Assembly: GCA_035510575.1 (NCBI GenBank)
Contig: DATKGV010000004.1
Span: forward strand, 88,419-152,418
From: Minisyncoccota bacterium
GTDB taxonomy: Bacteria > Patescibacteriota > Minisyncoccia > Phycocordibacterales > UBA9973
DNA length: 64,000 nt
Direction of reading: 5' to 3'
A program made the translations under genes and the position numbers. Positions 7,541-54,944 of this stretch are shown here, one piece after another. Under the pieces are notes generated by a model. That model had not been told where the DNA came from. It searched no databases and was given only the letters and a program-made list of their open reading frames with translations. Positions within the stretch are counted from its first letter, which is position 1. Each line of letters begins with the position of its first letter.

Positions 7541-7561
7541 GTACACCTTTTGGATACTTGG

Positions 7562-17279: not shown

Positions 17280-17310
17280 AATCAGCCATAAGTCCGACTT
17301 ATGGCTGATT
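17280..17310. repeat. 31-nt palindrome AATCAGCCATAAGTCCGACTTATGGCTGATT at the trmD 3' end, followed by a T-run on the plus strand
   Basis: The right arm encodes the last codons and the TAA stop of trmD. It shares the GTCGGACTT/AAGTCCGAC core with the rpoB-rpoC palindrome. Confidence 0.8.
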
Positions 17311-30464: not shown

Positions 30465-30487
30465 TCCCATAGGTCTGACCTATGGGA
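30465..30487. repeat. REP-like palindrome TCCCATAGGTCTGACCTATGGGA
   Basis: Palindrome with arms of about 11 bp and an unpaired centre base. Lies 3 nt after the thrS stop and contains the TAG stop of RAYT2. Confidence 0.85.
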
Positions 30488-31205
30488 TTTGGTCATGGTC
30501 TAAATTAATCCAATTAAAAAGATCATTTATATGAGAATTCTTTAGATATTCAGGTAAAAATTTTTTATTAATAATTTTAATTTCTTTTCTATTTTCTAAA
30601 AAATAATCATAAAAACTGGAGTAGTAGTATTTTTTTAAATATTCTTTCGCTTTATTTTTATCTTTAATTCCCTTTTGTTTCCAGTCTGATTGAATTAATT
30701 TTATAGGGTTTAGATGTATATATGAAAATAAATAATTAAAATAGTTCTCTTCTTTTACAATTTTAGATTTAAATTTTCCTTCAAATAATGATCCAGTACG
30801 ACTATATTTTTTATTAAAGTACATTGCATAAGCAGTAGATAGTTTCCTCATGAATTCAGTAATTGGATTATATTCTTCTTCCCATAGGTCAGACCTATGG
30901 GAAATAACAAATAAATGAAAATGGTTAGGCATTAACACCCAAGCTAGTATAGATACAATAGGTGTTCCTATTTCAAAATCAAAAGCTTCAATTTTGGGAT
31001 TAACTATATTTTCACGAAAAACAAGCTTTCTTTTGGAATTACAGACATAAAGCAATTTAATAAAATGATCATAATCTTCTTTGTCTAAGAAAATATCATT
31101 TTTACCATTTCCACGATTATATAAATGGTAATATTCTTTACAAACTAAATTTTCTACTCTTAATCCCATAGTTATATTATATAATAATAGATACAAATCT
31201 CCCAT
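30480..31205 (-). CDS. HUH-family Y1 transposase (RAYT / IS200-like), second copy type, with an in-frame internal palindrome
   Basis: Motifs YHLYNRG, NHFHLFV and YIHLNP. The likely true start is MGLRVENL (ATG rc 31167..31169). The annotated ATG at 31203..31205 is itself created by the upstream palindrome. Residues SHRSDLWEE are encoded by the internal palindrome at 30879..30903. Confidence 0.7.
   Translation of the reverse strand: MGDLYLLLYNITMGLRVENLVCKEYYHLYNRGNGKNDIFLDKEDYDHFIKLLYVCNSKRKLVFRENIVNPKIEAFDFEIGTPIVSILAWVLMPNHFHLFVISHRSDLWEEEYNPITEFMRKLSTAYAMYFNKKYSRTGSLFEGKFKSKIVKEENYFNYLFSYIHLNPIKLIQSDWKQKGIKDKNKAKEYLKKYYYSSFYDYFLENRKEIKIINKKFLPEYLKNSHINDLFNWINLDHDQIP
30879..30903. repeat. 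Internal copy of the RAYT2 palindrome (TTCCCATAGGTCAGACCTATGGGAA) inside the RAYT2 coding sequence
   Basis: Same arms as the flanking copies, but the centre base is inverted (GGTCAGACC versus GGTCTGACC). It is in-frame and corresponds to an extra segment relative to RAYT1, placed right after the HUH motif. Confidence 0.85.
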
Positions 31206-31263: not shown

Positions 31264-31584
31264 TTAAGGATTAAAAATTAATATATAACAAAGTATTATC
31301 GGAACAATAAAACTGATAATAAATGCAATTAAATCATACCTCTTACCTTTTTGTCTTGTTTTCAAAAACAAATAAAGAGAAAATATAGGTGAAACTATAA
31401 CAATAATATGGATTATTTTTATAATTTCTATAGCTTTATTAGATGATGAATCCCACTGACCCATCATAACCAAAACTGAAAATATGATTAATAAAATTTG
31501 CAAGAATGGCATACCAACTTCCCAACTACTTGATTGTCGTTTTATACTTTCAACATTTATATTTTTATTATTTTCTTGCTCCAT
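31264..31584 (-). CDS. Small 3-TM membrane protein, hypothetical
   Basis: Three hydrophobic helices. AT-rich with no recognisable motifs. Confidence 0.4.
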   Translation of the reverse strand: MEQENNKNINVESIKRQSSSWEVGMPFLQILLIIFSVLVMMGQWDSSSNKAIEIIKIIHIIVIVSPIFSLYLFLKTRQKGKRYDLIAFIISFIVPIILCYILIFNP

Positions 31585-40423: not shown

Positions 40424-41803
40424 TCAATCCGACTTTAATATAGTTACCAGCTTTGAAGCAAGGCCGGTATATGACAAAGGCGTCAATTTTTTAAGTTCTG
40501 ATTTTAATTGCGGAGAAACTTTCAAACTGTCTATGAATTTCGCAAAATCATTCATAGATACTTTCTTGCCGCGAGTAAGTTCTTTGAGGGCCTCATAAGG
40601 TATCGGATAACCTTCTCGCCGCAAGATCGTCTGGATCGCTTCGGCTATGATTTCCGGATGCGATAGCAAATCATCTTTAATCTTCTCTTCATTGGCGCTG
40701 ATTTTGCTTAAACCCTTTTCAAGTGCAAGATAAGCCACATGCGAGTGCCCGAATGCCGTACCAAATGTTCGCTTAACAGTTGAATCAGACAAGTCGCGCT
40801 GAAGCCGGGAAATCGGCAATTTCTGCGAGAAAAATGAAAACAGCGCGTTTGCTATGCCAAGGTTGCCTTCGCTGTTTTCAAAATCAATTGGATTGATTTT
40901 ATGCGGCATAGTCGATGATCCTACTTCGCCTGCTTTCGGCTTTTGAATTATGTATCCGTCGCTGATATATCGCCAGATATCTTGATTAAAATCCAAAAGA
41001 ATAGCATTGGCGCGCCTGATAATATCGAAAAGTTCCGCGTACGTGTCATGAGGTTCGATCTGGGTCGTAATTAAATTGGCTTCAAAAGAAACATGCGCTA
41101 TTTTGCCGATGTGATCTGCAAAATCTTTGGAAAATTTTATCCAATTTGCCTTTGGATAGGCGGAGACGAAAGCATTATAGTTGCCAGTCGCGCCGTTTAA
41201 TTTTATTAAAATTTTATTGGAAGAAAGCTGATCAATCTGGCGATTCAATCTGGCGATATACACCGCGAATTCTTTGCCAAGAGTCGTTGGGCTGGCTGGC
41301 TGGCCGTGAGTGCGGGCAAGCATGGGCAAAGATTTGTATAATTTTGAAAATGATTGCAGTTTGTTTTTTATATCAATAAGCTCTGGAATAATGGCATCTT
41401 TGCAAGCGAGTGAAAGTATTAATCCATAAGCGCAATTATCCGTATCTTCAGATGTCAGCCCGAAATGCACCCATTCAATAATATCTTTCAAGCTGGTGCT
41501 CTGTAAATTTTCCTTTATGAAATATTCAACCGCTTTGACATCATGATTTATCGCCGCTTCAAAATCCTTGATTTTTTTATACGATTTATCGTCAAACTTT
41601 TCATACAGCAAGCGCAATATTTTTATTTCATTAGAAGTAAATTTCCTGAGCCCTGTTATATTCGCGCTAGATAAGCGAATTAAAAATTCGCATTCCACCA
41701 TAACGCGATATTTCATTAATGCCTGCTCGGAAAAATACGGCGAAAGCGACCTGGTTTTCTCGTAATATCTGCCGTCCAAAGATGATATATTTTCGCCTTT
41801 CAT
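40424..41803 (-). CDS. purB: Adenylosuccinate lyase
   Basis: Fumarate-lyase signature GSSTMPHKINP. TSEDTDN block. Confidence 0.9.
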   Translation of the reverse strand: MKGENISSLDGRYYEKTRSLSPYFSEQALMKYRVMVECEFLIRLSSANITGLRKFTSNEIKILRLLYEKFDDKSYKKIKDFEAAINHDVKAVEYFIKENLQSTSLKDIIEWVHFGLTSEDTDNCAYGLILSLACKDAIIPELIDIKNKLQSFSKLYKSLPMLARTHGQPASPTTLGKEFAVYIARLNRQIDQLSSNKILIKLNGATGNYNAFVSAYPKANWIKFSKDFADHIGKIAHVSFEANLITTQIEPHDTYAELFDIIRRANAILLDFNQDIWRYISDGYIIQKPKAGEVGSSTMPHKINPIDFENSEGNLGIANALFSFFSQKLPISRLQRDLSDSTVKRTFGTAFGHSHVAYLALEKGLSKISANEEKIKDDLLSHPEIIAEAIQTILRREGYPIPYEALKELTRGKKVSMNDFAKFIDSLKVSPQLKSELKKLTPLSYTGLASKLVTILKSD

Positions 41804-41812
41804 AAAATATGT

Positions 41813-42775
41813 TTACTTTATTTTGCTTAAATTGTTTTTAATGCGCTCCATTATCGGCCGTGAAAAATCATGCAGAAACGGCTTGCCTGTAATCGTTTCG
41901 TATATCTCAATATAACGCCTGGAAAGCTCGGCGACAAGTTCAATCGGTGCTTCAGGCAGCACTTTGTCATTATACGGATCGCAGTGTTCTTTAAACCATA
42001 AGCGTAGAAATTCTTTGTCAAAATATTCAGGTTCAAGCCCCGCATTGAAGCGTTCATTATAGCTGTTGGCCTTCCAATAACGCGATGAATCAGGCGTATG
42101 TATTTCATCAATCAGAGTCAACTTGCCGTCTTCATCAATGCCGAATTCATATTTAGTATCGACAAGAATCAACCCGCGAGACAATGCTATTTCTTGTCCT
42201 CGGATAAATAATTCTTTGGCTATGCGTTCAACTTCGTCGGCCATTTCTTTAGCAAGCAATCCTTCGGAAACAATTTCGGCAGGAGTAATCGGGCGATCAT
42301 GCTCGTCTGATTTTGTCGTCGGAGTAAAAAGCGGTTCTGGAAGCTTTTGATTTTTCTTCAGTCCTTCAGGCAATATAAAGTTACCGAAATCGCGCTTGCC
42401 GTCCTTGTAATGAGTCCAAAGCGACGTGCCAGTTACTCCGGTAATATATCCGCGGACAACAGCTTCAATAGGAAGCGGCTTGCATTTCTTGGCTACAAGC
42501 ACATTCGGGTCAGGCACGCTTAAAACATGATTCTGTATGATATCTTTGGTATTTTCAAACCAAAAAGCGCTGATCTGATTCAGAACTTCCCCTTTGAAAG
42601 GTACATGTGCAATAATTCTATCGAATGAAGAATGGCGGTCGGTTGAAATAAGTATTATTTTATCCGGATTAATATACACATCACGCACTTTGCCGACTTT
42701 TTTTTGTCCAATACCAGCAAAATTCGTTTCTGTTATGACATCGCCTATATGCTGTTTTATTTTTTCTATATCCAT
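41813..42775 (-). CDS. purC: SAICAR synthetase
   Basis: GKVRDVY and LISTDRHSSFDRI blocks. Confidence 0.9.
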   Translation of the reverse strand: MDIEKIKQHIGDVITETNFAGIGQKKVGKVRDVYINPDKIILISTDRHSSFDRIIAHVPFKGEVLNQISAFWFENTKDIIQNHVLSVPDPNVLVAKKCKPLPIEAVVRGYITGVTGTSLWTHYKDGKRDFGNFILPEGLKKNQKLPEPLFTPTTKSDEHDRPITPAEIVSEGLLAKEMADEVERIAKELFIRGQEIALSRGLILVDTKYEFGIDEDGKLTLIDEIHTPDSSRYWKANSYNERFNAGLEPEYFDKEFLRLWFKEHCDPYNDKVLPEAPIELVAELSRRYIEIYETITGKPFLHDFSRPIMERIKNNLSKIK

Positions 42776-42780
42776 ATATA

Positions 42781-43935
42781 TTAATAAATAATTTTTTTAT
42801 TGGCAGTTAATTTTGAAATTATGGAAACCTGAGGTTTATTTTCTTTGGTTATTCTTCCGGCAACTTTGGCTTGTATATTAAACTCTTGAGCTCTTTTTAT
42901 GCAGTAATCGGCATCTTTCTCGTCTATGACAAGCAGCATTCCTTGCCCGCCATGCCATACTTCATAAAATTCTTCATCAGTCAATTTGCGCCATTCCGCG
43001 CAATCTCTCATAATCTGCGGAGGATCCCATAAATCGGTAAGCAGGGCGGAAAGCCCTCGCTGGAAAAGAATATCTTTGGCAAACTTTTCTTTTAAAGCTC
43101 CGCCAGAAAGATGAACAATTAAGTGGATTTTAATTTCCGGCTTGAAATCCTCAGCAAACCATCCGTGCAGAGTATTGATAAACATATCATAAAGAACAGA
43201 AGGAGTTGCCGCCAGTTTTATGCTTTCTTTCGCATCTTTATTTGCCCACCATTTTTCGCCGAATTTTTCTTTCAGAGCTTTTCTCAATGAACTTATTCCA
43301 TTACAGCGAAAACCGTTTTCTTTTAAGGCGATAATCGTCTGCCCCGGCGCCAAAGTATCGCCTGTAATCATTTTGTCTTTATGGTAGGCGCCGATCATCG
43401 TGCCGGACCAATTCAATTTGGTTTTGGAGTCGGATATTTCAGAGCCGATAGCATCTCCCATTTGGGCGGTTTCGCCTTTCAAGACCACGATTTTGCTTTG
43501 TTTTGCCACTTCGCCTAATCCCAAAATGGCGCTTTTGTATGTCTCACTCACTTCATCCCCTTCATTTCCGATAGAACTTGTATCAAAAACATTTATAAAA
43601 ACAAGCGGGATTCCGCCGAAACGGGTAATGTCGCTTGAAGTCATCGCGATAATGTCGTATGCCGCCAGATGATGAGTTTTGGCTGCATCAATAATGATGC
43701 CTTTCGTGCCAATGCCATCGGTAGACGCTTCAATGGAAAATCCAGCTGGCAGGTTTTTAAAATTAAAAGGCCGAGGTCCGCGGAAGTTACCGCCAGAGAG
43801 ATCATGCACTTCTATATATGGAGAATTATTATAACTTGCTTTACAAATTGATCCGGCGAAACTGCTAAAAGAAGATTCTTCTTCAACATCAACTCCGTCT
43901 TGCGAATAGATTTTCTTCTTTGTTAGTTCGCTCAT
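42781..43935 (-). CDS. purM: AIR synthetase (phosphoribosylformylglycinamidine cyclo-ligase)
   Basis: YSQDGVDVE, ASTDGIGTK and HLSGGAL blocks. Confidence 0.9.
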   Translation of the reverse strand: MSELTKKKIYSQDGVDVEEESSFSSFAGSICKASYNNSPYIEVHDLSGGNFRGPRPFNFKNLPAGFSIEASTDGIGTKGIIIDAAKTHHLAAYDIIAMTSSDITRFGGIPLVFINVFDTSSIGNEGDEVSETYKSAILGLGEVAKQSKIVVLKGETAQMGDAIGSEISDSKTKLNWSGTMIGAYHKDKMITGDTLAPGQTIIALKENGFRCNGISSLRKALKEKFGEKWWANKDAKESIKLAATPSVLYDMFINTLHGWFAEDFKPEIKIHLIVHLSGGALKEKFAKDILFQRGLSALLTDLWDPPQIMRDCAEWRKLTDEEFYEVWHGGQGMLLVIDEKDADYCIKRAQEFNIQAKVAGRITKENKPQVSIISKLTANKKIIY

Positions 43936-44459
43936 TTTTTATTTTCTTCCAGATAATTTTTAACTCCAATTTCAGAAAGTTTATCACCTTTAGTTTTAAC
44001 TTCATCATTCATCTTTTTCTTGTAGTTTATCATTTTATCTAAAAGATCCTTATCAGAAAGCGCCAATATTTGAATAGCAAGCAGAGCGGCGTTCTTAGCG
44101 CTATCGATGCCTACTGTCGCCACAGGCACGCCGGGTGGCATCTGGACAGTTGATAGAAGCGAATCAAAGCCATCTAAGGTTTTCGCTTTAACAGGAAGAC
44201 CGATAACTGGAAGCGGTGTCAATGATGCAATTACGCCTGCCAAATGAGCTGCTCCGCCTGCACAGGCAATAATAACTTTTAATCCATTAGACAATGCAGA
44301 AGTCGCATAGGCATGAACTAATTCAGGGGCTCTGTGAGCTGATGCAACTGTTATATCGTATGACACTCCAAATTCTTCTAATAAAATTGAAGCCCCAGAA
44401 GCAACTGAAAGGTCAGAATCTGACCCCATAACTATTCCCACTTTTGCATCTTTTTTCAT
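43932..44459 (-). CDS. purE: N5-CAIR mutase
   Basis: VGIVMGSDSDL, SAHRAP and ACAGGAAHLAGV blocks. Confidence 0.9.
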   Translation of the reverse strand: MKKDAKVGIVMGSDSDLSVASGASILLEEFGVSYDITVASAHRAPELVHAYATSALSNGLKVIIACAGGAAHLAGVIASLTPLPVIGLPVKAKTLDGFDSLLSTVQMPPGVPVATVGIDSAKNAALLAIQILALSDKDLLDKMINYKKKMNDEVKTKGDKLSEIGVKNYLEENKK

Positions 44460-44723
44460 AATGTGATTTTATCATTTCAAGAGAAATGTAACAAGCGCAA
44501 AAAAAAGACCTTTTTAAGAAGATCTTTTTTTATTTTTGACTATGTTCATAAGTGCTGTCATAATCATTGCCATTATCAATCTTCTCAGGATTATGATCAG
44601 AAGATTTTAATATTTTTGCACTTTCACTTCCTTGAAGATCAAATACTTGATTCTCTACATGCATACAATTATGAATTTAATTTATTTTCCTGAATCATAA
44701 CAAATGTCCGCCTTGGTGTCAAA

Positions 44724-46016
44724 TTATTTCTTCAAATATTTTAGCGCTTTTTGCCCTATATCGCGCCGGTATTGCATGCCATCAAATGAAATTTTTGATA
44801 CGGCTTCATAGGCACTTTTGAGCGCTTCTTTTAAAGTATTACCTATTGCGCTTACTCCAAACACACGTCCGCCATTTGTCACAAAATTTCCATTTTCATC
44901 AAGCTTCGTTCCAGCATGAAAAACAAAAATATTTGAATTATTTTCTGCTTCTTTTATTCCAGAAATAATTTTGCCTTTTTCATAATTCCCCGGATATCCG
45001 CCTGAAGCAAGCACTATTGTGCAAGCAAAAAGCGGTTTCCATTTTATATTAATAGTGGAAAGTGTGCCATTTATGCAAGCTTCAAATATATCCAGAATAT
45101 CGGTTTCCAAAAGCCGCATGTAACTTTGCGTTTCGGGGTCGCCGAAGCGGGCATTGTATTCAAGTATTTTGGGACCATCTTTTGTAAGCATCAATCCCGG
45201 ATAAAGTACGCCGACAAACGGCATTCTTTGCGCATTCATGGAAGATAATGTCAGTTTGATAATACTGCTTTCTACATCCGCCATAATATCATCCGTTACA
45301 AACGGCAACGGCGCAATCGTTCCCATACCGCCGGTGTTTAATCCCATATCTCCTTCGCCGATTCTTTTATGATCTTGCGATGGCGGGAAAATTGAATATG
45401 ATTTGCCGTCAGAAAACGCATGCGTTGATATTTCAATGCCTTCCAAAAATTCTTCAATCACGACTTCATTGCCTGATTCGCCGAATATTTTTTTTACCAA
45501 AATATCAGAAAGGGCCTCTTTGGCTTCTTCGTAATTGGCGCAAATAAATACTCCTTTGCCTAGAGCCAGTCCGCTTGCTTTAATTACAATAGGCAATTTT
45601 TGATTATCTAAATATTTAATGGCCTCATCAAAATCAGTAAAAGTTTTAAAGCTGGCAGTTGGTAAGTTATAGGTCTCCATAAAATGCTTGGCAAATGCTT
45701 TTGATGATTCAAGTTGAGCCGCTGCTTTGGTAGGTCCGAAAATTTTCAAGCCATTTGCCGTAAATATATCAACTATTCCAAGGGCAAGCGGGTCATCCGG
45801 AAGCGCCAATGTCATATCTATATTTTCTTTTTTGGCAAAATCAAGCAACGCATTAATATCAGTCGCTTTTATATCCACATTCTTTCCCAAACTAGCTGTA
45901 CCTCCATTCCCCGGCGCAAAAAATAACTCTTCTGCGCGCGGCGACTGCGCAACTTTCCATCCTATCGCATGCTCCCGTCCCCCGCTTCCAATGATTAAAA
46001 TTTTTAGTTTGTTCAT
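44724..46016 (-). CDS. purD: Phosphoribosylamine--glycine ligase
   Basis: KILIIGSGGREHAIGWK plus an ATP-grasp body. Confidence 0.9.
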   Translation of the reverse strand: MNKLKILIIGSGGREHAIGWKVAQSPRAEELFFAPGNGGTASLGKNVDIKATDINALLDFAKKENIDMTLALPDDPLALGIVDIFTANGLKIFGPTKAAAQLESSKAFAKHFMETYNLPTASFKTFTDFDEAIKYLDNQKLPIVIKASGLALGKGVFICANYEEAKEALSDILVKKIFGESGNEVVIEEFLEGIEISTHAFSDGKSYSIFPPSQDHKRIGEGDMGLNTGGMGTIAPLPFVTDDIMADVESSIIKLTLSSMNAQRMPFVGVLYPGLMLTKDGPKILEYNARFGDPETQSYMRLLETDILDIFEACINGTLSTINIKWKPLFACTIVLASGGYPGNYEKGKIISGIKEAENNSNIFVFHAGTKLDENGNFVTNGGRVFGVSAIGNTLKEALKSAYEAVSKISFDGMQYRRDIGQKALKYLKK

Positions 46017-46037
46017 AAATAATTTAATTTCTCTTAG

Positions 46038-46071
46038 TGCTACAAACTCTGCACGTGCAGAGTTTGTAGCA
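46038..46071. repeat. 34-nt perfect palindrome TGCTACAAACTCTGCACGTGCAGAGTTTGTAGCA (copy 1)
   Basis: The reverse complement, computed by hand, equals the sequence. Lies between the purD start and the stop of the Cys-rich gene. Confidence 0.9.
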
Positions 46072-46081
46072 TTTTGTTATT

Positions 46082-47821
46082 TTAATACACCTCTTGTTGA
46101 TAACACTTTTCACAATAAATAATTTCTGGCCTCTCAGGTGCATAACTTGTCTCAAATTCCACTTGGCATTTTCCTTGATGAATATGAGTGGTTTTATCGC
46201 ACATGCATGATCTATGCCAGAGTTTCATGGGGTTTCTTTGAGCTAGTCGCTCATAGTGCCGACAGTTAGGACAGAGATGAGGTAATGGCAAGTTCATTCT
46301 CTTGTAGAATTGAAGCTCTTCAGGGATGATCTTGAAGGCCTCGGTGCATTGTTGGTTACAGGTTCCTTTATGATTACATTCTATGACTTTACCTATGATG
46401 TCGTCTGTTATGTCTTTTATGTTATCGGGAATGTCTTTATTGTATATATCTATCTCATAGTTTCTTTCTTCTTTGTCTTTCCATTTGTAACCTTGATTTA
46501 AAGCTTGTTCTTTAGTTAATGGGAAGTACTCTTGAGCTATTGTTTCGTTGTAGCAGAATGGTGATAGTTCGCTTGGGAAGAATTCTCCATATTTATATAT
46601 TCTACCTTTACTATCTATGTAGGGCATATCGTTCATGTGCTTGATGATTTTGGGGACTAATTCTTCATATTCTTCTTTGGTGTATTGACGGTTTAGGATG
46701 CAGAATTGATTACTCTTTAAACTAGTACACCCAAACAAATCAGAAGAAGACGCACAAAAATCTGAATAAAAAACATTTCTTAGATTTTTTAATCCATTAT
46801 TTGCAAATAATAAATTATAGCTATTATTTGCTCCCCCTCCGGAAAATTCATAAATTAATTCGCAATCCGCTATATTATTACCTTCATAACAATCTTTGGA
46901 TCCATAACACCTAAATATATTTTTTGTATTTTCGATATTATATGCATCAAAAGACATTTTTGCATTTTTTGCATTAGATAATTCATCGCCTGTACTACTT
47001 GTAGATTTTATTATTTGAGCGTATTTACGAGGAAATTTTTTCATAATATTTTCAAATTCTTCTTTTGTTTTTTGGATATTTCTAAAACTACCAAAATCAA
47101 AAGTTTTAATTTTCTCTTTATACTCTTTCTCATTAAGTTGTATGTTGTTAAAAACATATTTTTTATTTCTTAACCCTACTGAACAAAAACAATTCTGACA
47201 ATCAATACAATCAAAAAGAAAAGATGAATCAATGCAATTTCGGCAAAGTATCAAAAAAGACGAATTATAGTTATTTTCTCCTCGAATATTTTCATAGCAT
47301 AAATTAGAGTTAATAAGACTCAAGCTATCAAAAACATCTTTGGATCTATCAATGCTTTTGCAAAAAAATATATTTTCCGAATTATTTACCGAAAATGATA
47401 AGTAAAGATTTTTACTTTCGCCAATTATATTGGAATATTCGCTATTTAAACAATTTCTGTTGAATAAGTTAGGTCTTGGAACTTTTTGATTTAATTCTTT
47501 CAATTGTTCAAAGAATGATTTAGAAAAATCATATTTTAAACCAAACGACAAAGGGTCCCAATTGTCGGAATACCAACAATTTATGCAATATATGGGAAAA
47601 GAAGAATTCTGATGGTACATAGTTATGCCTTTTTTACCACAAATACCGCAAGTAAAATGATAAAGTGATCTTTCGTTACGAAATTGAATACGGCGCATTG
47701 TTCTACATTCAAAACAAAAAGTCGGCAGAGGAACTTTTATTTTTTCATAAAAAGAAAAGTCGTCTAGCTCAATAATAAAGTTGTTTTTGCAATTTTGGCA
47801 GATTTTAGTTTCTGAATTCAT
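46082..47821 (-). CDS. Cys-rich multi-zinc-ribbon protein (579 aa) with N/S-rich low-complexity centre; unknown function
   Basis: N-terminal CQNC...CFEC and C-x2-C...C-x2-C pairs. The C-terminal ribbon repeats the N-terminal motif (FY.K...PLP..C..CR...R...RN occurs at both ends). More than 40 Cys in total. No RuvC, HNH or radical-SAM motif was recognised. AT3-biased codons. A paralog lies at 1..249. Confidence 0.7.
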   Translation of the reverse strand: MNSETKICQNCKNNFIIELDDFSFYEKIKVPLPTFCFECRTMRRIQFRNERSLYHFTCGICGKKGITMYHQNSSFPIYCINCWYSDNWDPLSFGLKYDFSKSFFEQLKELNQKVPRPNLFNRNCLNSEYSNIIGESKNLYLSFSVNNSENIFFCKSIDRSKDVFDSLSLINSNLCYENIRGENNYNSSFLILCRNCIDSSFLFDCIDCQNCFCSVGLRNKKYVFNNIQLNEKEYKEKIKTFDFGSFRNIQKTKEEFENIMKKFPRKYAQIIKSTSSTGDELSNAKNAKMSFDAYNIENTKNIFRCYGSKDCYEGNNIADCELIYEFSGGGANNSYNLLFANNGLKNLRNVFYSDFCASSSDLFGCTSLKSNQFCILNRQYTKEEYEELVPKIIKHMNDMPYIDSKGRIYKYGEFFPSELSPFCYNETIAQEYFPLTKEQALNQGYKWKDKEERNYEIDIYNKDIPDNIKDITDDIIGKVIECNHKGTCNQQCTEAFKIIPEELQFYKRMNLPLPHLCPNCRHYERLAQRNPMKLWHRSCMCDKTTHIHQGKCQVEFETSYAPERPEIIYCEKCYQQEVY

Positions 47822-47857
47822 GCGTAAATTATAACCCCAAAAACCCTCTTCTACAAG

Positions 47858-47891
47858 TGCTACAAACTCTGCACGTGCAGAATTTGTAGCA
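47858..47891. repeat. 34-nt palindrome copy 2 (1 mismatch) centred in the divergent promoter region; candidate operator
   Basis: TGCTACAAACTCTGCACGTGCAGAATTTGTAGCA. Each arm contains a TTGTAG hexamer roughly 16-17 nt upstream of a TATAAT-like element, one for each divergent gene. Confidence 0.85.
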
Positions 47892-47915
47892 TATTATTTT
47901 TGATTAATATATAAT

Positions 47916-48398
47916 ATGAACATGTCTATTGTTATGGAAATTTTAGAAGAACTTTGGAACACTGAGCTTAATTATAAAGGAATTAAAGTAAATATTTTTG
48001 GTATTCCTCGTTTTAAACAATATTCATCTAAAAGCGTTAGGGCAACTATTGATCGCCTAAAAAGAAAGGGCGTCATAGAAAAAGAATTAACTGGAATAGT
48101 ACTCTCAAAATATGGCAAAGAATATGTCAGAAGAAAAATTGATTCATTAAAACAATTTGATAGACCAGAAAATATATCTAAAGATAAAAATCTTCTAGTA
48201 ATGTTTGATATACCTGTTGAGAAAAAAGGGGAACGCGAATGGTTCCGATGGCATCTCAAAAAATTTGGTTATATTATGATTCAACATAGTGTATGGGTTG
48301 GACCATCTCCCCTACCCAAAGAATTTCTTGATTATGTTAAAAGTATAAAACTTGATAAATGTATTAAAACTTTTAAACTTGAAAAACCTTATAAATAA
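47916..48398 (+). CDS. Minimal PaaX-like regulator: winged-HTH plus Cas2-like domain
   Basis: The N-terminal wHTH (VRATIDRLKRKGVIEKE...LSKYGKEYVRRK) parallels PaaX (VRTALFRLNKEGWL...LSDKGLRLTRR). The block LLVMFDIPVEKKGEREWFRWHLKKFGYIMIQHSVWV fits the Cas2 / PaaX-central-domain pattern (beta-strand with Asp, basic helix, G...Q.SVF/W). Confidence 0.65.
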   Translation: MNMSIVMEILEELWNTELNYKGIKVNIFGIPRFKQYSSKSVRATIDRLKRKGVIEKELTGIVLSKYGKEYVRRKIDSLKQFDRPENISKDKNLLVMFDIPVEKKGEREWFRWHLKKFGYIMIQHSVWVGPSPLPKEFLDYVKSIKLDKCIKTFKLEKPYK

Positions 48399-48401
48399 GA
48401 A

Positions 48402-48435
48402 TGCTACAAACTCTGCAGGTGCAGAGTTTGTAGCA
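48402..48435. repeat. 34-nt palindrome copy 3 (centre CAGGTG instead of CACGTG)
   Basis: TGCTACAAACTCTGCAGGTGCAGAGTTTGTAGCA. Starts 4 nt after the stop of the PaaX-like gene. Confidence 0.85.
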
Positions 48436-48459
48436 TTCTTGGAAAACGATTACATGAGA

Positions 48460-49179
48460 TTATCCTTTCGGATACATCTTAATTGCAAGCTGTTTGCATT
48501 CTTCTAAAATTTTCTCTTCACTTGGTAATACAAGAGGTGTTTCGCGAATAAATTCTGAAACATTTCCATTGGCAAAATCGCGGAGAGTTTCAATCTGCAC
48601 TTCATGCTCAATCGGAAGCACTCGCGCTTGGAGTATTTCTGCAGTATCGTTTTGAAATATTGGCACTTGCTTTCTTTTCACAATTTTTCCTTCATCAAAA
48701 TCAACTGTAACTCTATGGGCTGTAGCTTCTGTCCAAAAATCTTTGTTCGTCCTGCGGACAAATTCCAGTCGCGCTTGGTGAACGCGCATTCCATACATTC
48801 CAACTCCGCCAAAGTCAGGTCGCCCTGTGTCCAATGGTCCTGGATGCTGATTGATAATCATATTTTTGTAGGCCTCTATGACATTGCTTGGCGTTTTAAC
48901 TAGCCAGCCATATTGGCCGATAAAATCAACATTTCTCTTCTTGCATTCGGCAAGAATAGCTTCTCCATATAAGCTGTTATCAGCAAATGCTTTTGGATTT
49001 AAAACTAGAATATCTTTTTCTTTAATGCCGAGATCGAGCGCTTTTTGTATTCCTCCAATTCCCTCTTTGCTGGCAATAACAAGAGCAGGAACAACGCCTT
49101 GCAAAGCATTATCTTTGCAGGCCTTTATAATTGCCTGCATAGTAGTTCCGCCGCCAGATATGAGCAAAGCGATTTTCAT
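48460..49179 (-). CDS. purN: Phosphoribosylglycinamide formyltransferase
   Basis: MKIALLISGGGTTMQAII plus a formyltransferase core (INQHPGPL). Confidence 0.85.
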   Translation of the reverse strand: MKIALLISGGGTTMQAIIKACKDNALQGVVPALVIASKEGIGGIQKALDLGIKEKDILVLNPKAFADNSLYGEAILAECKKRNVDFIGQYGWLVKTPSNVIEAYKNMIINQHPGPLDTGRPDFGGVGMYGMRVHQARLEFVRRTNKDFWTEATAHRVTVDFDEGKIVKRKQVPIFQNDTAEILQARVLPIEHEVQIETLRDFANGNVSEFIRETPLVLPSEEKILEECKQLAIKMYPKG

Positions 49180-49184
49180 AAAAA

Positions 49185-50582
49185 TTATTCGTAATGGATA
49201 TTATAATTGACTTCTTCTTTTCTTTCTAAAATATCAATCGGATAAACGCCGGTAAAAGCCGATAATGAAAAATTTTCTTTCGGGAGCCCTGTGGCCTTGA
49301 CCATGCCGTCAATTGACAGGAATGACAAAGAAGTCGCTCCCAAATATTCTCTTGTCTCTTCTATTGTTCTTTGCGAGGAAATCAAATTAACTTGCTTGGG
49401 AGTATCAATGCCGTAAAAATCAGGAAATCGGACAGGCGCCGAACTGACCATAAAATGCACTTCTTTGGCGCCGGCATCAAAAAGCATTTTGACTATCTGC
49501 TGGCTGGTCGTGCCCCGCACGATAGAATCATCAACGACTGCTACTCGCTTTCCTCGTATTGTTTCTTCAAGCGGAGTCAGTTTCATTTTGACCTTCTGCT
49601 CGCGATTTGCCTGTGTCGGTTCGATGAATGTGCGATGTATGTAGCGATTTTTGACTAAAGCCATTTCAAACGGTATGCCTAATTCCTGCGAATATCCGAT
49701 TGCCGCCGGAATTGCGGTTTCCGGCACGGGTATTACGATGTCAACTTCTTTCTTGTGTTCCTGCGCTAATATTTTGCCGAAATTCTTGCGGACTTCATAG
49801 ACCGATTTGCCCATTATGACGCTGTCATAGCGAGCAAAATAAACGAATTCGAAAATATCAAACTTCGGTTCAGCTTTTTTGAGAATTTTGCTTTCTATCC
49901 CATTTTTCGTGATAATCACCATCTCGCCGGGACTGACATCTCGCAAGAATTTTGCGCCGACAGTACGAAAGGCGCAAGTTTCAGAAGCCACGACTATTTC
50001 ATTTTTATCCGATTTGCCGATGACAAGCGGACGAACGCCGCAGTAATCGCGAAATGCCACCAGGCAGTCGCATGATAAAGCCACGCATGAAAATGCTCCG
50101 GTAAAAAGCGGATAGGCCTTTTCTACGGCAATCGGCAAAGAAAATCCGTCATCCATGTAAGCTCCGATGGCTTTAGACATTAATTTAGAATCAGAACAAT
50201 CTGAAATATCTTCGCCTCTGTCGCTTAAGAATTGAATAAGGGCTTTGGCGCTGGGAAGATTGCCATTATGGGCGAATGCCATTTTGCCTTTATACATTAT
50301 GGGCTGCGCATGCTGTATGCCTAAACCGCGCGAAGTCGAGTAGCGATTATGCCCTATCGCCGCAAATCCTGGAAGCTCTTTAAGAATTTCTTCCGTATAA
50401 ATCTGGCTGACAAGCCCTGTTTTCTTGTATAAAAATATATTCGAGCCGTCGGTCGTTGCAATGCCAGAATGCTCTTGGCCCCTATGCTGAAGAGCGAACA
50501 ATCCGAAATAGGCCTGGCGAGCCGCATCGCTTCCATCCCAGATTCCGAAAACCGCGCATTTTTCATTTAGTTTATTATTCAT
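49185..50582 (-). CDS. purF: Amidophosphoribosyltransferase
   Basis: N-terminal nucleophile Cys (CAVFGIW), LQHRGQEHSGI, and a PRTase motif. Confidence 0.9.
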   Translation of the reverse strand: MNNKLNEKCAVFGIWDGSDAARQAYFGLFALQHRGQEHSGIATTDGSNIFLYKKTGLVSQIYTEEILKELPGFAAIGHNRYSTSRGLGIQHAQPIMYKGKMAFAHNGNLPSAKALIQFLSDRGEDISDCSDSKLMSKAIGAYMDDGFSLPIAVEKAYPLFTGAFSCVALSCDCLVAFRDYCGVRPLVIGKSDKNEIVVASETCAFRTVGAKFLRDVSPGEMVIITKNGIESKILKKAEPKFDIFEFVYFARYDSVIMGKSVYEVRKNFGKILAQEHKKEVDIVIPVPETAIPAAIGYSQELGIPFEMALVKNRYIHRTFIEPTQANREQKVKMKLTPLEETIRGKRVAVVDDSIVRGTTSQQIVKMLFDAGAKEVHFMVSSAPVRFPDFYGIDTPKQVNLISSQRTIEETREYLGATSLSFLSIDGMVKATGLPKENFSLSAFTGVYPIDILERKEEVNYNIHYE

Positions 50583-51376
50583 TATTTTTTAAAATAATTA
50601 ACGGCATTCTTGAACAAAGTAAGGCCGGGCCCGTCTGCGGGAATATTTTTTTTCTTTCTTAATAAAATTTCTTTCTTTATCTGCCAATTCGGCATTTGCT
50701 GGAAGAACATGGCGCGCTCTGGATGAGGCATCAGCCCTAATACTCTCCCATTATACCCCAGTACTCCGGCAATATCTCGCATAGCGCCGTTTGGATTGGC
50801 TTTTAAATTCTGATACTTGCACATTTCGCCTTTTGTATAAATAAAAGCGATCTGTCTGCCTTTTCGCATTTCTTTATATTCTTTTTCTGAGATGACATAT
50901 CGTCCTTCGCCGTGCGCTATAGGCAACGATATTTTCTTAAGATTGCCAAGCCACGGGCTCCTGCCAAGAACTTTAAGATCTACCCATCTATCTATATATT
51001 GTCCGCTTTCATTATGCGCGAGTCCGCCCGGAAGCAAACCGAGATTAGTGATTATTTGAAAGCCGTTGCATATGCCTATGGTCAAAGTGTCGCGATTGAC
51101 AAACCCTTCCAATTCTTTCTTTAAATGATTTTTAATCTTATTGGCATAGGCCTTGCCGCTGCCGGTATCATCGCCATAAGAAAATCCGCCCGGAAATACG
51201 AGAATTTGGTATTTCAAAAACATTGCAGGATTTTTAATTAAATCATTTATATGCACAATATCTGCTTCCCCTCCCGCTTTCTCAAAAGCAAATTTTGTCT
51301 CTTCTTCACAATTAAGCCCATATCCGGACATTATGAGTGCTTTTGGCTTTTTAAAATTTTTTTTGTCTTTTTTCAT
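50582..51376 (-). CDS. purQ: FGAM synthase glutaminase subunit
   Basis: Class-I GATase with a GICNGFQI nucleophile elbow. Confidence 0.9.
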   Translation of the reverse strand: MKKDKKNFKKPKALIMSGYGLNCEEETKFAFEKAGGEADIVHINDLIKNPAMFLKYQILVFPGGFSYGDDTGSGKAYANKIKNHLKKELEGFVNRDTLTIGICNGFQIITNLGLLPGGLAHNESGQYIDRWVDLKVLGRSPWLGNLKKISLPIAHGEGRYVISEKEYKEMRKGRQIAFIYTKGEMCKYQNLKANPNGAMRDIAGVLGYNGRVLGLMPHPERAMFFQQMPNWQIKKEILLRKKKNIPADGPGLTLFKNAVNYFKK

Positions 51377-51377
51377 A

Positions 51378-54300
51378 TTATTCCATCTTATTTGAAAAAT
51401 AGTTATACGATCCTGATAGTTTTTTAAGGTTTGTATCTATGACATTATTACCTTTTTCATCTTTGACAATCAGCTTCTTGTTGTTAGAAACAATCCCAAT
51501 CTTTGCAAATGGAATATTTTTCATCAATTTTTCGAACGAAGCCACATTTTTCTTCCCAACTGTCACAACAATTCTTCCTTGGCTTTCAGAAAAAAGTTTT
51601 GAATCAATAGTTGTGGCTTTTCCTTTCATATTCTTTATTGAAATATTGGCGCCAAGCATGCCACCTATGCTTCCTTTCGCAAGCGCGCACGCAAACCCGC
51701 CAGAAGCAATGGAAATGGAAGATGCTATCAATTTTTTATATATCGCCTTCTCTAAAGCTCTATATATTTTTGTATTTTTCTTGAAATCTACTTTAGGCAC
51801 ATTATTGCCAATCTTTGAGGTATTATTCCCGGAAAGTAATTTAAAATATTCCGACGCGCCAAGCTCGTCGTGCGTTTCGCCGATTAGATATATGATATCT
51901 CCCGCCATTTTGAAATCGGGCGTAACGCATTTATTAATATCAGGAATAACGCCGATAGCCGAAATAAGAAGCGTAGGAGGTATGGAAATCGCAACGGGAT
52001 TGCCTTTATCATCATAGCCCTTAAAATCATTGAACATGCTGTCTTTGCCTGAAATAAATGGCGTGCCATAACCGACAGCATAATCATAACAAGCGCGAAC
52101 GGCTTTTATGAGTTCTGCCAGCCGATTTTTGTCATAAGAAGAGCACCAGCAGAAGTTATCAAGAATTGCCAGATTATCAAGCGATGCTCCGCAAGCGACT
52201 GCGTTCCTGATGGCCGTATCTATAGCGCAAGCAGCCATGTGATAAGCATTTATATCGGAATATGAAGGATATAAGCTGGATGAAAGCGCAACTCCTTTCA
52301 TTGATGGCAATACCGGGCGGATGATTTGAGCGTCCGTATTGATGCGGCCGGCGCCGAATAACGGCTTGATAACCGATCCGGCCTGCACTTCATGATCGTA
52401 CTGCTCGGATATCCATTTGAAGCTTCCGATATTGCCGGTCTTTAAAAGTTCCAGCAAATATTTCGTTCGTGAATTGCCTTTCGGCAAATCAGGTTCGGCA
52501 TAATTTTTCGGCATAGCAAGCGATTCCAAGTGGCGATGAGGCAAGCCGTTATGCAAGAATTCCATTTCAATATCCATAATAATTTTGCCATTATGCCTGA
52601 CAACGCAATGCGAAGAATCAGTGAATTCTCCTATTCGGCAAGCTAGCACCCCGCGGGACTCCATTAAATCATTGAATGCCTTCCATTTATCTTTTGGCAC
52701 AGAAAGAGTCATGCGTTCCTGCGATTCAGAAATCCAAATCTGCCACGGCATAAGTCCGGGGTATTTAAGAGGCACTTTTTCAATATCAACAATTGCTCCG
52801 CCATATTTGCTGTTAGAAGAAAAAATTTCTTTAGCCATCTCGGCAACTGAACACGATAAACCGCCGGCGCCGTTATCGGTAATGCTGGTGTATAGCCCCA
52901 AGTTTCTCGCCTCTTTGACTATGGCATCGCTTAATTTCTTTTGAGTGATCGGATCGCCTATCTGGACAGCTGTCGCCGGACTTGATGAATCCATTGCCAC
53001 AGACGAGAACGTCGCTCCATGAATGCCGTCAGCTCCGACTTTTCCTCCGATAATGACTATGTAATCGCCTTTTTGCGCGCATTTTTCATGAGACGGCTTG
53101 CCGTTGATAATTCTCGGCAAAAGACCGATAGTGCCGACAAAAACCAGTGGCTTTGCGCGAAATCTGTCATCATATCTGGCAAATCCAGAGACAGTAGGAA
53201 TTCCAGAACAGTTGCCGCCGACATTTACGCCTCTGATAACTCCGTCAATAATGCGCTTCGGCGGAAGCATTTTTTGCGTGAGATTTTTGTCGCGAAATAG
53301 CGGCCTTTTGTCGTCGGGATTGCCAAAACAAAATCCGTACATATTTGCCACCGGCTTTGCTCCCATGCCAAAACCGATAGTGTCGCGATTGACACCGACA
53401 ATGCCAGTAATAGCCCCGCCGAATGGATCAAGCGCCGATGGGCTGTTATGCGTCTCCACTTTGTGAGTAACCATAAAATCCTTGTCAAAAACAATTCCTC
53501 CGGAATTATCCGAAAATACTGAAATGCAAAAATCGTTCTTTCCTTTCTGCTTGCGAATAAGATTTGTCGCGCCCTTTATGTACGTCTTATATAATCCATC
53601 TTTTATATCATCAATCGAATTTGCAAATATCGTGTGCTTGCAGTGCTCGCTCCAGGTCTGCGCCAATGATTCCAATTCAATATCGGTCGGGTCACGCTGT
53701 AAATCTCTAAAATGTTTCTGAATTATTTTCATTGATGACAAGTCAAGAGCCAGCGGTCCGCGGCGCGAGCCTGCTTGCGCAGATAGGCCATCTCTATCTT
53801 GTATTCCTTCTTTTCCTATTTTTATAAGTTCATCGTCAGATACATTAAGAGGCACATTAATGACGGGAATTTTTTTAGGCAAGATAACTTGAGGCACTAT
53901 AAGAGGCAAAGAATTATTTTTCTTAACAATGCCAGCTTCCGTAATTCCAAACCTTTCTATAAGCGGATTATGAAGAGACAAGGCGATTTTTTTCATATCA
54001 GATTCCGTGACATTGCCTGAAACGAAAAAAAGCCGCGAGGTATAGACAGCTTCATTCGCGCCAAGCGCGCGTCCTATGCAGTCGGAAATTTCTTCTTTGG
54101 CGGTTTGTCCGACATTATCCGTAACTCCCGGCAAAAAGCCGATTTCGCAGACAAAAGAAAAATCGCCTATTCCAGGCAATGTATTTATGCTATGCGTTTC
54201 AATGACGGGATTAGTTAAAGTAATGGCTGATTTTGCAAGTTCATCACTTGAAAGTTTGGCATCTATGGTATATGAATCAACCAAAGAAACATGCGCCACC

Positions 54301-54392
54301 TTGCCGTTAATATCAAGCTTATTGAATGATTTTTGATGCAATATCCCGCGACTATCTTTACCTTTTGGTGCAATATATATGCGCGAAATCAT
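51378..54392 (-). CDS. purL: FGAM synthase PurS-PurL fusion
   Basis: An N-terminal PurS-like domain of about 80 aa, followed by PurL AIRS-type domains. 1004 aa. Confidence 0.9.
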   Translation of the reverse strand: MISRIYIAPKGKDSRGILHQKSFNKLDINGKVAHVSLVDSYTIDAKLSSDELAKSAITLTNPVIETHSINTLPGIGDFSFVCEIGFLPGVTDNVGQTAKEEISDCIGRALGANEAVYTSRLFFVSGNVTESDMKKIALSLHNPLIERFGITEAGIVKKNNSLPLIVPQVILPKKIPVINVPLNVSDDELIKIGKEGIQDRDGLSAQAGSRRGPLALDLSSMKIIQKHFRDLQRDPTDIELESLAQTWSEHCKHTIFANSIDDIKDGLYKTYIKGATNLIRKQKGKNDFCISVFSDNSGGIVFDKDFMVTHKVETHNSPSALDPFGGAITGIVGVNRDTIGFGMGAKPVANMYGFCFGNPDDKRPLFRDKNLTQKMLPPKRIIDGVIRGVNVGGNCSGIPTVSGFARYDDRFRAKPLVFVGTIGLLPRIINGKPSHEKCAQKGDYIVIIGGKVGADGIHGATFSSVAMDSSSPATAVQIGDPITQKKLSDAIVKEARNLGLYTSITDNGAGGLSCSVAEMAKEIFSSNSKYGGAIVDIEKVPLKYPGLMPWQIWISESQERMTLSVPKDKWKAFNDLMESRGVLACRIGEFTDSSHCVVRHNGKIIMDIEMEFLHNGLPHRHLESLAMPKNYAEPDLPKGNSRTKYLLELLKTGNIGSFKWISEQYDHEVQAGSVIKPLFGAGRINTDAQIIRPVLPSMKGVALSSSLYPSYSDINAYHMAACAIDTAIRNAVACGASLDNLAILDNFCWCSSYDKNRLAELIKAVRACYDYAVGYGTPFISGKDSMFNDFKGYDDKGNPVAISIPPTLLISAIGVIPDINKCVTPDFKMAGDIIYLIGETHDELGASEYFKLLSGNNTSKIGNNVPKVDFKKNTKIYRALEKAIYKKLIASSISIASGGFACALAKGSIGGMLGANISIKNMKGKATTIDSKLFSESQGRIVVTVGKKNVASFEKLMKNIPFAKIGIVSNNKKLIVKDEKGNNVIDTNLKKLSGSYNYFSNKME

Positions 54393-54461: not shown

Positions 54462-54944
54462 ATGGAAAAGATAAATATCTACATAGATGGTAACAATTTA
54501 TACCGATCGGCTAAAGAATTAGGATTTGAAATTGATTACAAAAAATTTAGAGGATGGCTTAGGCAGAAATATAATGCAAGCAATATCTATTTATTCATTG
54601 GTCTTGTGCCCGAAAGAGTAAAATTCTATGAACACCTGCAAAGTTGTGGCTATATTTTAGTTTTTAAACAAACAGTTTCTATTGGAGAAAAAATAAAAGG
54701 AAATTGTGATGCGGAACTTGTATTAAAAACCGTATCTGACTTTTACATTAAATCTTTTTCAAAATGCATTTTGATCACTGGTGATGGAGATTTTGGATGT
54801 TTAGTAGAATTTTTAAAAGAAAATAAAGTTATAAATATAGTAATAGCTCCCGATGAAAATAAATGCTCCATTTTATTAAGAAATAAAAATATAGAAATTA
54901 CCTTTTTAAACGAGCTTTATCATAAATTTTCAAATAAGATATAA
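54462..54944 (+). CDS. NYN/LabA-like domain protein (putative RNase)
   Basis: INIYIDGNNLYRSAK start and an ILITGDGDF block typical of NYN. Confidence 0.7.
   Translation: MEKINIYIDGNNLYRSAKELGFEIDYKKFRGWLRQKYNASNIYLFIGLVPERVKFYEHLQSCGYILVFKQTVSIGEKIKGNCDAELVLKTVSDFYIKSFSKCILITGDGDFGCLVEFLKENKVINIVIAPDENKCSILLRNKNIEITFLNELYHKFSNKI

Follow-up and report, generated by a model that had tools for sequence, protein, structure and literature searches.

A PaaX-like and Cas2-like small protein of Patescibacteria and its candidate palindromic site in a divergent, predicted leaderless promoter

Our results concern a 64-kb stretch of DNA from a Minisyncoccota bacterium of the Patescibacteria (contig DATKGV010000004.1; the whole stretch is called the window here), in which two genes and three copies of a 34-nt palindrome lie between the purine genes purD and purN. 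The first gene encodes a small protein that joins a winged helix-turn-helix (wHTH) to a Cas2-like domain, and the second a 579-aa Cys-rich protein. The original prediction, made from the letters of the window, had placed both genes and the three palindromes at this site, and the coordinates of the open reading frames (ORFs) and the three copies were confirmed. Comparison with related loci suggests, with a probability that we put at roughly 0.6, that the small protein binds the palindrome, that the upstream copy (P2) is an operator within a divergent pair of leaderless promoters, and that the other copies (P1 and P3) are further sites or hairpins, all belonging to a low-copy dispersed family.

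The description of the small protein as a minimal PaaX-like wHTH plus Cas2-like protein, already proposed from its sequence, is supported by the profile searches. Residues 93-156 matched PaaX_M (PF20803; E=3.4e-12, 46.7 bits against a cut-off of 24), the cas2 model TIGR01573 matched with 30 bits (cut-off 24.5) over residues 93-129 only, corresponding to beta1-alpha1-beta2, and the PADLOC Cas2 models matched down to E=2e-9. The orthologs are 75-87% identical across genera, and the Asp of the Cas2-type beta1 strand 'MFDIP' is invariant among them. The N-terminus, with the secondary structure H-H-H-beta-beta, gave weak S19e/MarR-like wHTH matches, together with a match below the cut-off to the PaaX-type winged helix (PF07848; E=0.2, 12.3 bits against 24.8). 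In the structural model, a wHTH is followed by beta-alpha-beta-beta-alpha-beta, and the top fold matches (E ~1e-2) were PaaX of E. coli (8a39), Rv0674 and type II Cas2, which are the kind of matches that had been anticipated. Note that the confidence of this model is low (predicted local distance difference test, pLDDT, 62) because the alignment is shallow. As for the length of the protein, the ORF does encode the 160 aa originally reported; the second ATG, used in nearly all orthologs, is almost certainly the start, however, and gives 158 aa.

The small protein is neither a PaaX equivalog nor a CRISPR Cas2. PaaX is the repressor of the phenylacetate catabolon (Pfam families PaaX, PaaX_M and PaaX_C) and presumably binds an inverted-repeat operator over the promoter. 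Both proteins have an N-terminal winged helix and then a Cas2-like middle domain, but the small protein ends before the C-terminal effector-binding (ligand-binding) domain of PaaX (158 aa versus about 305) and reached 26 bits with the full-length equivalog model TIGR02277, whose cut-off is 264.6. In addition, the small gene has no paa genes nearby, and the long palindromes on its two sides recur at dispersed sites. With CRISPR Cas2 it shares the beta1-alpha1-beta2 signature, including the Asp, and a TIGR01573 score above the cut-off. In contrast to Cas2, it is fused to a wHTH, and no cas1, cas gene or CRISPR array was called in the annotated neighbourhoods. Cas1 and other cas Pfam families were absent from the called genes of L004-L009 and L207-L210, although no dedicated window-wide array search was made (L-numbers label comparison loci from named genomes or metagenome contigs). 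This indicates that the public-record label of the protein, 'CRISPR-associated endonuclease Cas2', is misleading. Neither Y1_Tnp (PF01797) nor any other transposase or recombinase domain matched the small protein, and 2.9 million viral contigs contained no relative of it. Our literature search found no paper combining Cas2 and PaaX, or describing this type of protein or palindromes of the candidate phyla radiation (CPR).

A second PaaX_M protein type, of ~180 aa, is encoded between grpE and dnaK in L001 and, in L015, directly after the small gene and next to grpE. It appears that minimal wHTH-Cas2-like proteins form a broader family of regulators in these genomes, in which the ~180-aa type may have a connection with the chaperone operon.

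In other genomes, it is the small gene that the palindromes accompany. Two related palindromes bracket it in L004, L006 and L008, and the scanning of 37 further named-genome loci revealed the bracket in most orthologs above ~67% identity, a few of them having one copy. The unit formed by palindrome, small gene and palindrome is conserved in most of the ~20 close orthologs from Paceibacteria, and the downstream copy is found 14-55 nt 3' of the stop codon in 17 orthologous loci. Where the ortholog is more distant (about 42-57% identity), other palindromes occupy the equivalent positions, and in genomes with two or three copies of the small gene a distinct palindrome variant surrounds each. Since the palindrome differs both with the distance of the ortholog and with the gene copy, the protein and the palindrome co-vary.

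The position of the upstream palindrome is nearly fixed. In 15/15 orthologs, 44-48 nt separate its centre from the start codon (47 nt in the window, counted from 47922), and a perfect TATAAT is located 6-9 nt before the start codon in the same 15/15. As this distance leaves no room for a Shine-Dalgarno sequence, leaderless or near-leaderless transcription is implied for the small gene; in the window the same holds for the predicted transcript of the Cys-rich gene, where 6 nt separate the TATAAT from the ATG at 47821 (read from the sequence and its reverse complement). A TTGTnn, formed by arm positions 10-15 of the palindrome, precedes the TATAAT by 16-17 nt in 12/15 orthologs, with a spacer of 20-21 nt in L006, L018 and the window. 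On the other side, the palindrome is directly abutted by the divergent gene's own promoter (TTGTAn, 17 nt, TATAAT), this gene being tmk in several genomes and the Cys-rich gene in the window. The palindrome arms had been credited with the -35 hexamers of both genes; this agrees with the ortholog comparison in the case of the small gene, but the Cys-rich gene has its TTGTAG outside the palindrome, in an additional copy immediately next to it (47851-47856). An operator function, also raised in the original prediction, is plausible given that the upstream copy overlaps the promoter at a fixed distance in all 15 orthologs. Note that a generic sigma-70 scan did not rise above shuffled sequences; the promoter is visible only by ortholog comparison.

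In the window, the arms GCTACAAACTCTGCAC and GTGCAGAGTTTGTAGC occur together three times, at 46039-46070 (0 mismatches), 47859-47890 (1 mismatch) and 48403-48434 (1 mismatch), and no further copy was found elsewhere in the 64 kb, where 0 would be expected by chance. At P3 the complementarity extends beyond the core, to 22-nt arms. The anatomy of the site was derived from 41 palindrome copies aligned on their centres, which revealed the conserved blocks ACA-N3-TCTGC-N4-GCAGA-N3-TGT. Positions 3-7 from the centre (TCTGC/GCAGA) are invariant, positions 11-13 (ACA/TGT) are nearly so, and positions 8-10 and 14-17 vary freely with the arms still complementary. Complementarity runs to the centre of the palindrome, with 0-2 unpaired nt, and fades past position 17-21. 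The TCTGC and GCAGA blocks are 10 bp apart from centre to centre, that is, one helical turn, which is the usual half-site spacing of a dimeric helix-turn-helix protein.

The variable positions change in a paired manner. Ninety-seven per cent of the cells were paired, and both sides had changed in 11/15 pairs. The doubly changed cells numbered 120, compared to 34 in shuffles, the observed values were reached by 0/500 shuffles, and pairing fell to 31-53% when the partner was shifted by 1-3 columns. Since the sites had been ascertained as palindromes, matches to the core only were used as a control: 0/39 conserved-core matches in viral contigs were complementary at the variable positions, and 87/125 core matches in metagenomes were unpaired there. 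Chance matches being unpaired, a match to the core does not by itself entail complementarity. Moreover, the upstream and downstream copies of L016, L019 and L020 differ from each other at the variable positions, yet each is internally symmetric. Recognition of half-sites by a dimer hardly accounts for this, and the sequences point to selection on, or generation through, intrastrand pairing. Within a genome, the variable positions are common to the copies (GCTA in 3/3 copies of the window, CTAT in 3/3 of L014, ACTA in 2 of L023). The co-varying arm positions and this within-genome likeness imply that the site also propagates, or is maintained, as a hairpin-forming element.

Copies of the palindrome are also found away from the small gene. 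A metagenome scan with the core pattern returned at least 120 loci and, among the matches listed, 38 are true palindromes, of which only 13 adjoin an ortholog of the small gene and 25 do not; four of these 25 lie within ~150 nt of a contig end, where a nearby small gene is possible. Gene junctions hold many of the copies, convergent ones in L014, L023, L095 and at P3 in the window, and co-directional ones at P1 in the window and in L104, L131, L153, L164, L171, L186, L189 and L190. L014 and L023 have extra copies a few kb from the small gene. Beyond the flanks of the small gene, ~3 extra copies were present in ~600 kb of ortholog loci which, with the 25:13 ratio of the metagenome sample, suggests that the copy number is low, a handful per genome. 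The palindrome is a dispersed element, apparently of low copy number. The original prediction held that hundreds of copies at unrelated sites would weaken its idea of a cassette; unrelated sites were found, coding sequences among them, but at an apparently low copy number.

Seven copies are in frame inside Pfam-confirmed genes, namely MiaA (four copies), Alr, Fmt and a reverse transcriptase (RVT_1). They share one frame, ACA-NNN-TCT-GCN-NNN-GCA-GAN-NNT-GTN, which is translated as T-x-S-A-x-A-E/D-x-V. The four MiaA copies occupy one orthologous loop, and their variable positions differ and are still complementary; in L002, MiaA lacks the palindrome segment. The Rickettsia palindromic elements (RPEs) are about 100-150 bp long and have no known protein partner (PMC10969869). 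As occurs with the RPEs, the palindromes lie in frame inside unrelated housekeeping genes and add a short peptide in a tolerated loop. Unlike the RPEs, they measure 34-40 nt, are present in Patescibacteria and are tied to a specific protein-coding gene.

What the system might control is suggested by the neighbourhood of the small gene. In ~20 loci its neighbours, immediate or a few kb away, are dut-tmk in one direction and glyA, thyA-folA, a mazG-like gene and dCMP deaminase in the other, where nudix and deoxyribosyltransferase genes also occur on the glyA side in some of these loci. In the close orthologs tmk is the divergent neighbour, and this position is stable across many genera. The tmk/dut/glyA/thyA/folA synteny is also present in the metagenome loci L090, L118 and L156, and in L134 and L184 orphan palindromes lie directly upstream of tmk without a small gene. 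From this cluster, and from the purine operon of the window, we infer a possible link between the small gene and nucleotide metabolism. A link of this kind for all orthologs was considered and dropped, as it holds for about half of them; the other neighbours are heterogeneous (grpE, RF, RecJ/RNase H, RmuC/ExoX, HisRS). In L004, a diversity-generating retroelement (bAvd, RVT_1 and Lcl_C-type targets) is the neighbour of the small gene.

In the reading that we favour, a dimer of the small protein would bind the palindrome at the TCTGC/GCAGA half-sites, which are separated by one helical turn, and this binding would control both its own leaderless promoter, by autoregulation, and the divergent promoter. 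P3 and P1 may be further binding sites and/or hairpins, and they may insulate or modulate transcription through the host operon. At P1, the minus (operon) strand has no U-tract, which makes read-through into purD plausible, and the palindrome was flagged as terminator-like on the + strand only. Several observations weigh against this reading. The protein and the palindrome are connected by adjacency and co-variation only, and the model of the small protein and its fold matches are of low confidence. A dimer bound to an operator leaves unexplained the complementarity at positions 8-10 and 14-17, the upstream/downstream differences of L016, L019 and L020, and the intragenic copies. The palindrome scan missed L012 and L013, which have imperfect or altered palindromes at the same place; the 20-nt spacer between the -35 and -10 elements is suboptimal in the window; and ~half of the ortholog loci have no adjoining nucleotide-metabolism genes.

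Some of these features recall the units called REPtrons, in which the gene of a RAYT, a transposase associated with repetitive extragenic palindromes (REPs), has a cognate palindrome on either side; these palindromes co-evolve with the protein, show compensatory changes and occur in extra copies (PMC2817692, PMC3116915). By analogy, the small protein could copy or move its palindromes, the wHTH recognising the hairpin and the Cas2-like domain, with its invariant Asp, cutting it; we consider this unlikely. The architecture is indeed of the RAYT type (PMC2817692), with two flanking cognate palindromes of the 20-40-nt class, co-evolution, compensatory changes and further copies elsewhere, including in-frame insertions in unrelated genes and the presence or absence of the segment in MiaA. 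Copies of one genome share their variable positions (three in the window, three in L014, two in L023), some genomes hold two or three modules, each with its own palindrome variant, and the module is AT-rich compared to its flanks. The window also has two true Y1_Tnp genes bracketed by hairpins of their own, which are different. However, with no PF01797 match the small protein cannot be counted among the Y1/HUH transposases, it has no recombinase domain either, and the same Cas2-like domain is found in a repressor, PaaX. The REPs number 37-427 per genome and the RAYTs evolve faster than their neighbours (PMC2817692), whereas the palindrome appears to be far from tens to hundreds of copies and the small protein is about as conserved as the housekeeping genes next to it. 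Its tmk-adjacent position is stable in many genera, the four MiaA copies at one orthologous site fit old inheritance as well as a hot spot, and the Y1 transposases of these genomes, whose hairpins differ, could be the real mobilisers. Moreover, the palindromes have no GTAG/CGTC head, are found inside coding sequences and, in the upstream copy, are built into the promoter. It is equally doubtful, in our opinion, that Patescibacteria have a repeat-plus-protein system in which the wHTH-Cas2-like protein recognises its own 34-nt hairpin-forming palindromes and propagates or maintains them, the palindromes surrounding its gene, making up its promoter, spreading to junctions between genes and entering housekeeping genes in frame.

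Could the palindromes act at the RNA level only, as bidirectional terminators or mRNA-stabilising hairpins without a dedicated protein, the core reflecting -35 elements and shared ancestry? The RNA hairpins are strong (-21 to -32 kcal/mol; -25 to -27 kcal/mol for P1), and they have A-rich left and T-rich right flanks (5.3 A and 5.9 T per 10 nt, compared to 2.8 and 2.6 of the opposite base), as in bidirectional intrinsic terminators. Many copies are located at convergent gene ends (including L014, L023, L095 and P3), P1 is terminator-like on the + strand, and the arm covariation is what selection on a stem predicts. Nevertheless, the upstream copy stands between two promoters that point away from each other, a place with no need of a terminator, and its distance from the start codon is constant to within 5 nt. 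The TCTGC-N4-GCAGA block does not change from genus to genus and the remainder of the stem is free to vary, a pattern unexpected for a mere stem, and complementarity runs to the centre, beyond what a hairpin loop allows. The mismatches (4 of G.T type, 9 of A.C type and 8 others) give no clear sign that G.U pairs are tolerated on one strand or the other, the intragenic copies cannot serve as terminators, and the Rfam search of the locus gave sub-threshold noise only, with no family match. Thus, a terminator role explains some copies, but neither the promoter copy nor the invariant core, and we regard an explanation at the RNA level alone as improbable.

The interpretation first given to the locus was that of a palindrome-bracketed two-gene cassette. 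Taken further, this would be a mobile or defence-type cassette in which the Cys-rich protein and the regulator cooperate and the palindromes are recombination boundaries. Within the window, the three palindromes delimit exactly the two genes, and both genes are AT-rich. Two palindromes abut Cys-rich paralogs in the metagenome contigs L104 and L186, and in L001 a distant PaaX_M-type gene adjoins two of these paralogs. The comparison largely refuted this idea, which we now hold to be very improbable. Elsewhere the palindromes bracket the small gene alone, and the pair is not conserved. Among the small-gene orthologs of L004-L046, none is adjacent to a Cys-rich paralog, the nearest being 3.5-6 kb away, in five loci. 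Conversely, the closest relatives of the Cys-rich gene (60-72% identity) occupy other sites, either following grpE or within tandem arrays; they are outside any pur operon and have no small gene in their vicinity. Members of the Cys-rich family are found inside housekeeping operons with overlapping gene ends, PADLOC gave no match for the Cys-rich protein, and neither gene has a relative in the 2.9 million viral contigs. The 2 of ~17 orphan intergenic palindromes that lie beside a family making up a few percent of genes are not clearly above chance. Finally, four other samples have the very same arrangement from purD through the Cys-rich gene and the small gene to purN, and among them no empty site (same-species presence/absence) was seen; the arrangement is thus fixed in the lineage. 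In our reading, the Cys-rich gene stands beside the small gene by coincidence, with no functional tie.

Table 1. Features of the window and of the comparison loci (coordinates of the L loci are those of each locus).
Feature	Sequence	Position	Strand	Remarks
purD	window	44724..46016	-	host operon gene; Pfam GARS domains on the identical gene in L207
Palindrome P1	window	46038..46071		perfect 17-nt arms; between the Cys-rich stop and the purD start, co-directional junction
579-aa Cys-rich ORF	window	46082..47821	-	between purD and purN
Promoter-like signals of the Cys-rich gene	window	47828..47856	-	TTGTAG, 17-nt spacer, TATAAT at 47828-47833
Palindrome P2	window	47858..47891		centre of the divergent promoter pair; candidate operator; TTGTAG at 47884-47889 in the right arm
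-10 TATAAT of the small gene	window	47910..47915	+	6 nt before the start codon at 47922
Small-gene ORF as called mechanically	window	47916..48398	+	160 aa; between purD and purN
Small wHTH + Cas2-like (PaaX_M) gene, likely start	window	47922..48398	+	158 aa; second ATG (MSIV...)
Palindrome P3	window	48397..48440 (core 48402-48435)		directly 3' of the small-gene stop, faces the purN 3' end, convergent
purN	window	48460..49179	-	host operon gene; Formyl_trans_N on the identical gene in L207-L209
Purine cluster	window	40424..54392		purL, purQ, purF, purN, purD, purE, purM and further genes
Start of second Cys-rich paralog	window	76..249	-	cut by the window start
Y1 transposase gene	window	7579..8259	-	hairpins 7562-7588 and 8269-8309
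Y1 transposase gene	window	30480..31205	-	hairpins 30465-30487 and 31195-31227; internal hairpin 30868-30914
AT-rich island	window	54462..54944	+	directly after purL; NYN-domain protein
AT-rich island	window	27890..28624	-	ORF with no Pfam match
AT-rich island	window	31264..31584	-	ORF
Perfect 42-nt hairpin	window	3966..4007		unrelated to the TCTGC palindromes
Hairpin	window	17280..17310		unrelated to the TCTGC palindromes
GC-rich 34-nt palindrome	L002	7759..7792		directly 3' of a Cys-rich paralog; unrelated to the TCTGC palindromes
MiaA with in-frame copy	L093	556..1521		
MiaA with in-frame copy	L146	1141..2088		
MiaA with in-frame copy	L198	790..1665		
MiaA with in-frame copy	L205	4577..5620		
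Alr with in-frame copy	L137	5628..6764		
Fmt with in-frame copy	L161	2075..3034		methionyl-tRNA formyltransferase
Reverse transcriptase with in-frame copy	L157	3115..4137		
Cys-rich paralogs	L001	4340..7713, 12527..13713		
Cys-rich paralogs	L002	1..2033, 6001..7752		
Cys-rich paralogs	L003	1532..3256, 6001..7749		
Cys-rich paralogs	L047	319..5503		three in a row
Cys-rich paralog	L211	1564..3282		
TraG/VirD4-like coupling ATPase (DUF87/TrwB)	L001	10376..12463		near Cys-rich paralogs
TraG/VirD4-like coupling ATPases (DUF87/TrwB)	L003	1..1458, 3351..4865		near Cys-rich paralogs
TraG/VirD4-like coupling ATPase (DUF87/TrwB)	L189	1682..3178		near Cys-rich paralog
~180-aa PaaX_M protein	L001	7710..8249	-	
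~180-aa PaaX_M protein	L015	10572..11117	-	
Small gene beside diversity-generating retroelement	L004	6618..10271		

The Cys-rich protein was analyzed in its own right. It has 34 Cys residues and 9 CxxC motifs, not the more than 40 Cys first reported. Zinc-ribbon or treble-clef-type modules are located at both ends (about residues 1-95 and 480-579) and, as had been noticed, they are related, residues 471-574 aligning to the N-terminus with E=6e-7. Its AlphaFold model (pLDDT 83, predicted template modelling score, pTM, 0.81) has a poorly defined first repeat block (residues 120-230), a confident beta-solenoid (278-375) and a highly conserved core (400-470) between the solenoid and the C-terminal zinc module; the family has the near-invariant segment YKYGEFFPxELSPFxYNETIAQEYFPL. 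The central part is N/S-rich, as described before, but it is conserved and modelled as a beta-solenoid, and is thus not of low complexity. No credible family was found in Pfam, NCBIfam, PADLOC (0 families at E<=1) or PHROGs, and a sequence-profile search of the PDB gave no match. In agreement with the original prediction, which had recognised no nuclease, radical-SAM or known defence motif, these searches and the model support a protein without a recognisable enzyme fold. At most, the model suggests that it may be a nucleic-acid- or protein-binding scaffold. Compared to the Cys-rich beta-solenoids and to zf_Tbcl and zf_Tbcl_2, which gave no match over the whole protein, it lacks the catalytic residues of acyltransferases, and its architecture (zinc module, solenoid, solenoid, conserved core, zinc module) has no described counterpart.

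The family to which it belongs is huge and CPR-specific, with roughly ten or more paralogs per genome. At least 6,574 full-length relatives, all unnamed, were found, and an exhaustive profile search (E<=1e-30) gave 2,166 clusters at 50% identity. Copies are many in each genome, often in tandem and co-directional with housekeeping genes, for example two copies downstream of grpE in a cluster that continues to dnaK, one between ftsW and murG, and one after dnaJ. One close relative overlaps the end of grpE within a ribosomal-protein cluster, indicating co-transcription with the host operon. The window itself contains the start of a second paralog, a 58-aa N-terminus that is 69% identical. TraG/VirD4-like coupling ATPases are encoded near several Cys-rich paralogs; some of them carry at the C-terminus a zf_Tbcl_2 zinc finger, a type shared with the Cys-rich family, and one adjoins an orphan palindrome.

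As proposed originally, the two genes differ in composition from the pur operon in which they lie. The GC content is 0.31 in the Cys-rich gene and 0.29 in the small gene, compared to a window mean of 0.40, and at third codon positions it falls to 0.27 and 0.17, respectively. Both genes are compositional islands foreign to the pur operon, and the window has other islands too. Three of these (GC 0.24-0.31; Table 1) may be accessory insertions, as the Cys-rich gene and the small gene may be. The operon is part of a long, co-directional purine cluster, which is itself notable, since CPR bacteria often lack the de novo synthesis of purines. The two Y1 transposase genes of the window (PF01797 above the cut-off, IS200-like) are very AT-rich (GC 0.24-0.26), and their hairpin families, AAGCTAGGAC.GTCCTAGCTT and CCCATAGGTC.GACCTATGGG, are distinct from the TCTGC palindromes. 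With their hairpins they look like RAYT/REP-like or IS200-like units, so a gene bracketed by hairpins is a layout used by real hairpin-processing enzymes in this genome. The long hairpins of other sequence, two in the window and one in L002, may be terminators.

To our knowledge, almost nothing is known about gene regulation in Patescibacteria, which are largely uncultured. Our results offer a candidate regulator-site pair for these organisms: a protein with ~80% conservation in many genera, a defined 34-nt site, a predicted leaderless promoter and a possible link to thymidylate and purine genes. They also indicate that a public 'Cas2' label is wrong, and they draw attention to the Cys-rich family as one of the larger uncharacterised families of the lineage, with several copies per sub-megabase genome, placed in core operons. 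The in-frame palindromes of MiaA, Alr, Fmt and a reverse transcriptase represent a rare case, outside Rickettsia, of selfish or recruited palindromes within coding sequences. Finally, the layout of a gene flanked by palindromes raises the possibility of a REPtron analogue built on the Cas2 fold; if a repeat-plus-protein system of this kind were real, the Cas2 fold would gain a repeat-processing role outside CRISPR.

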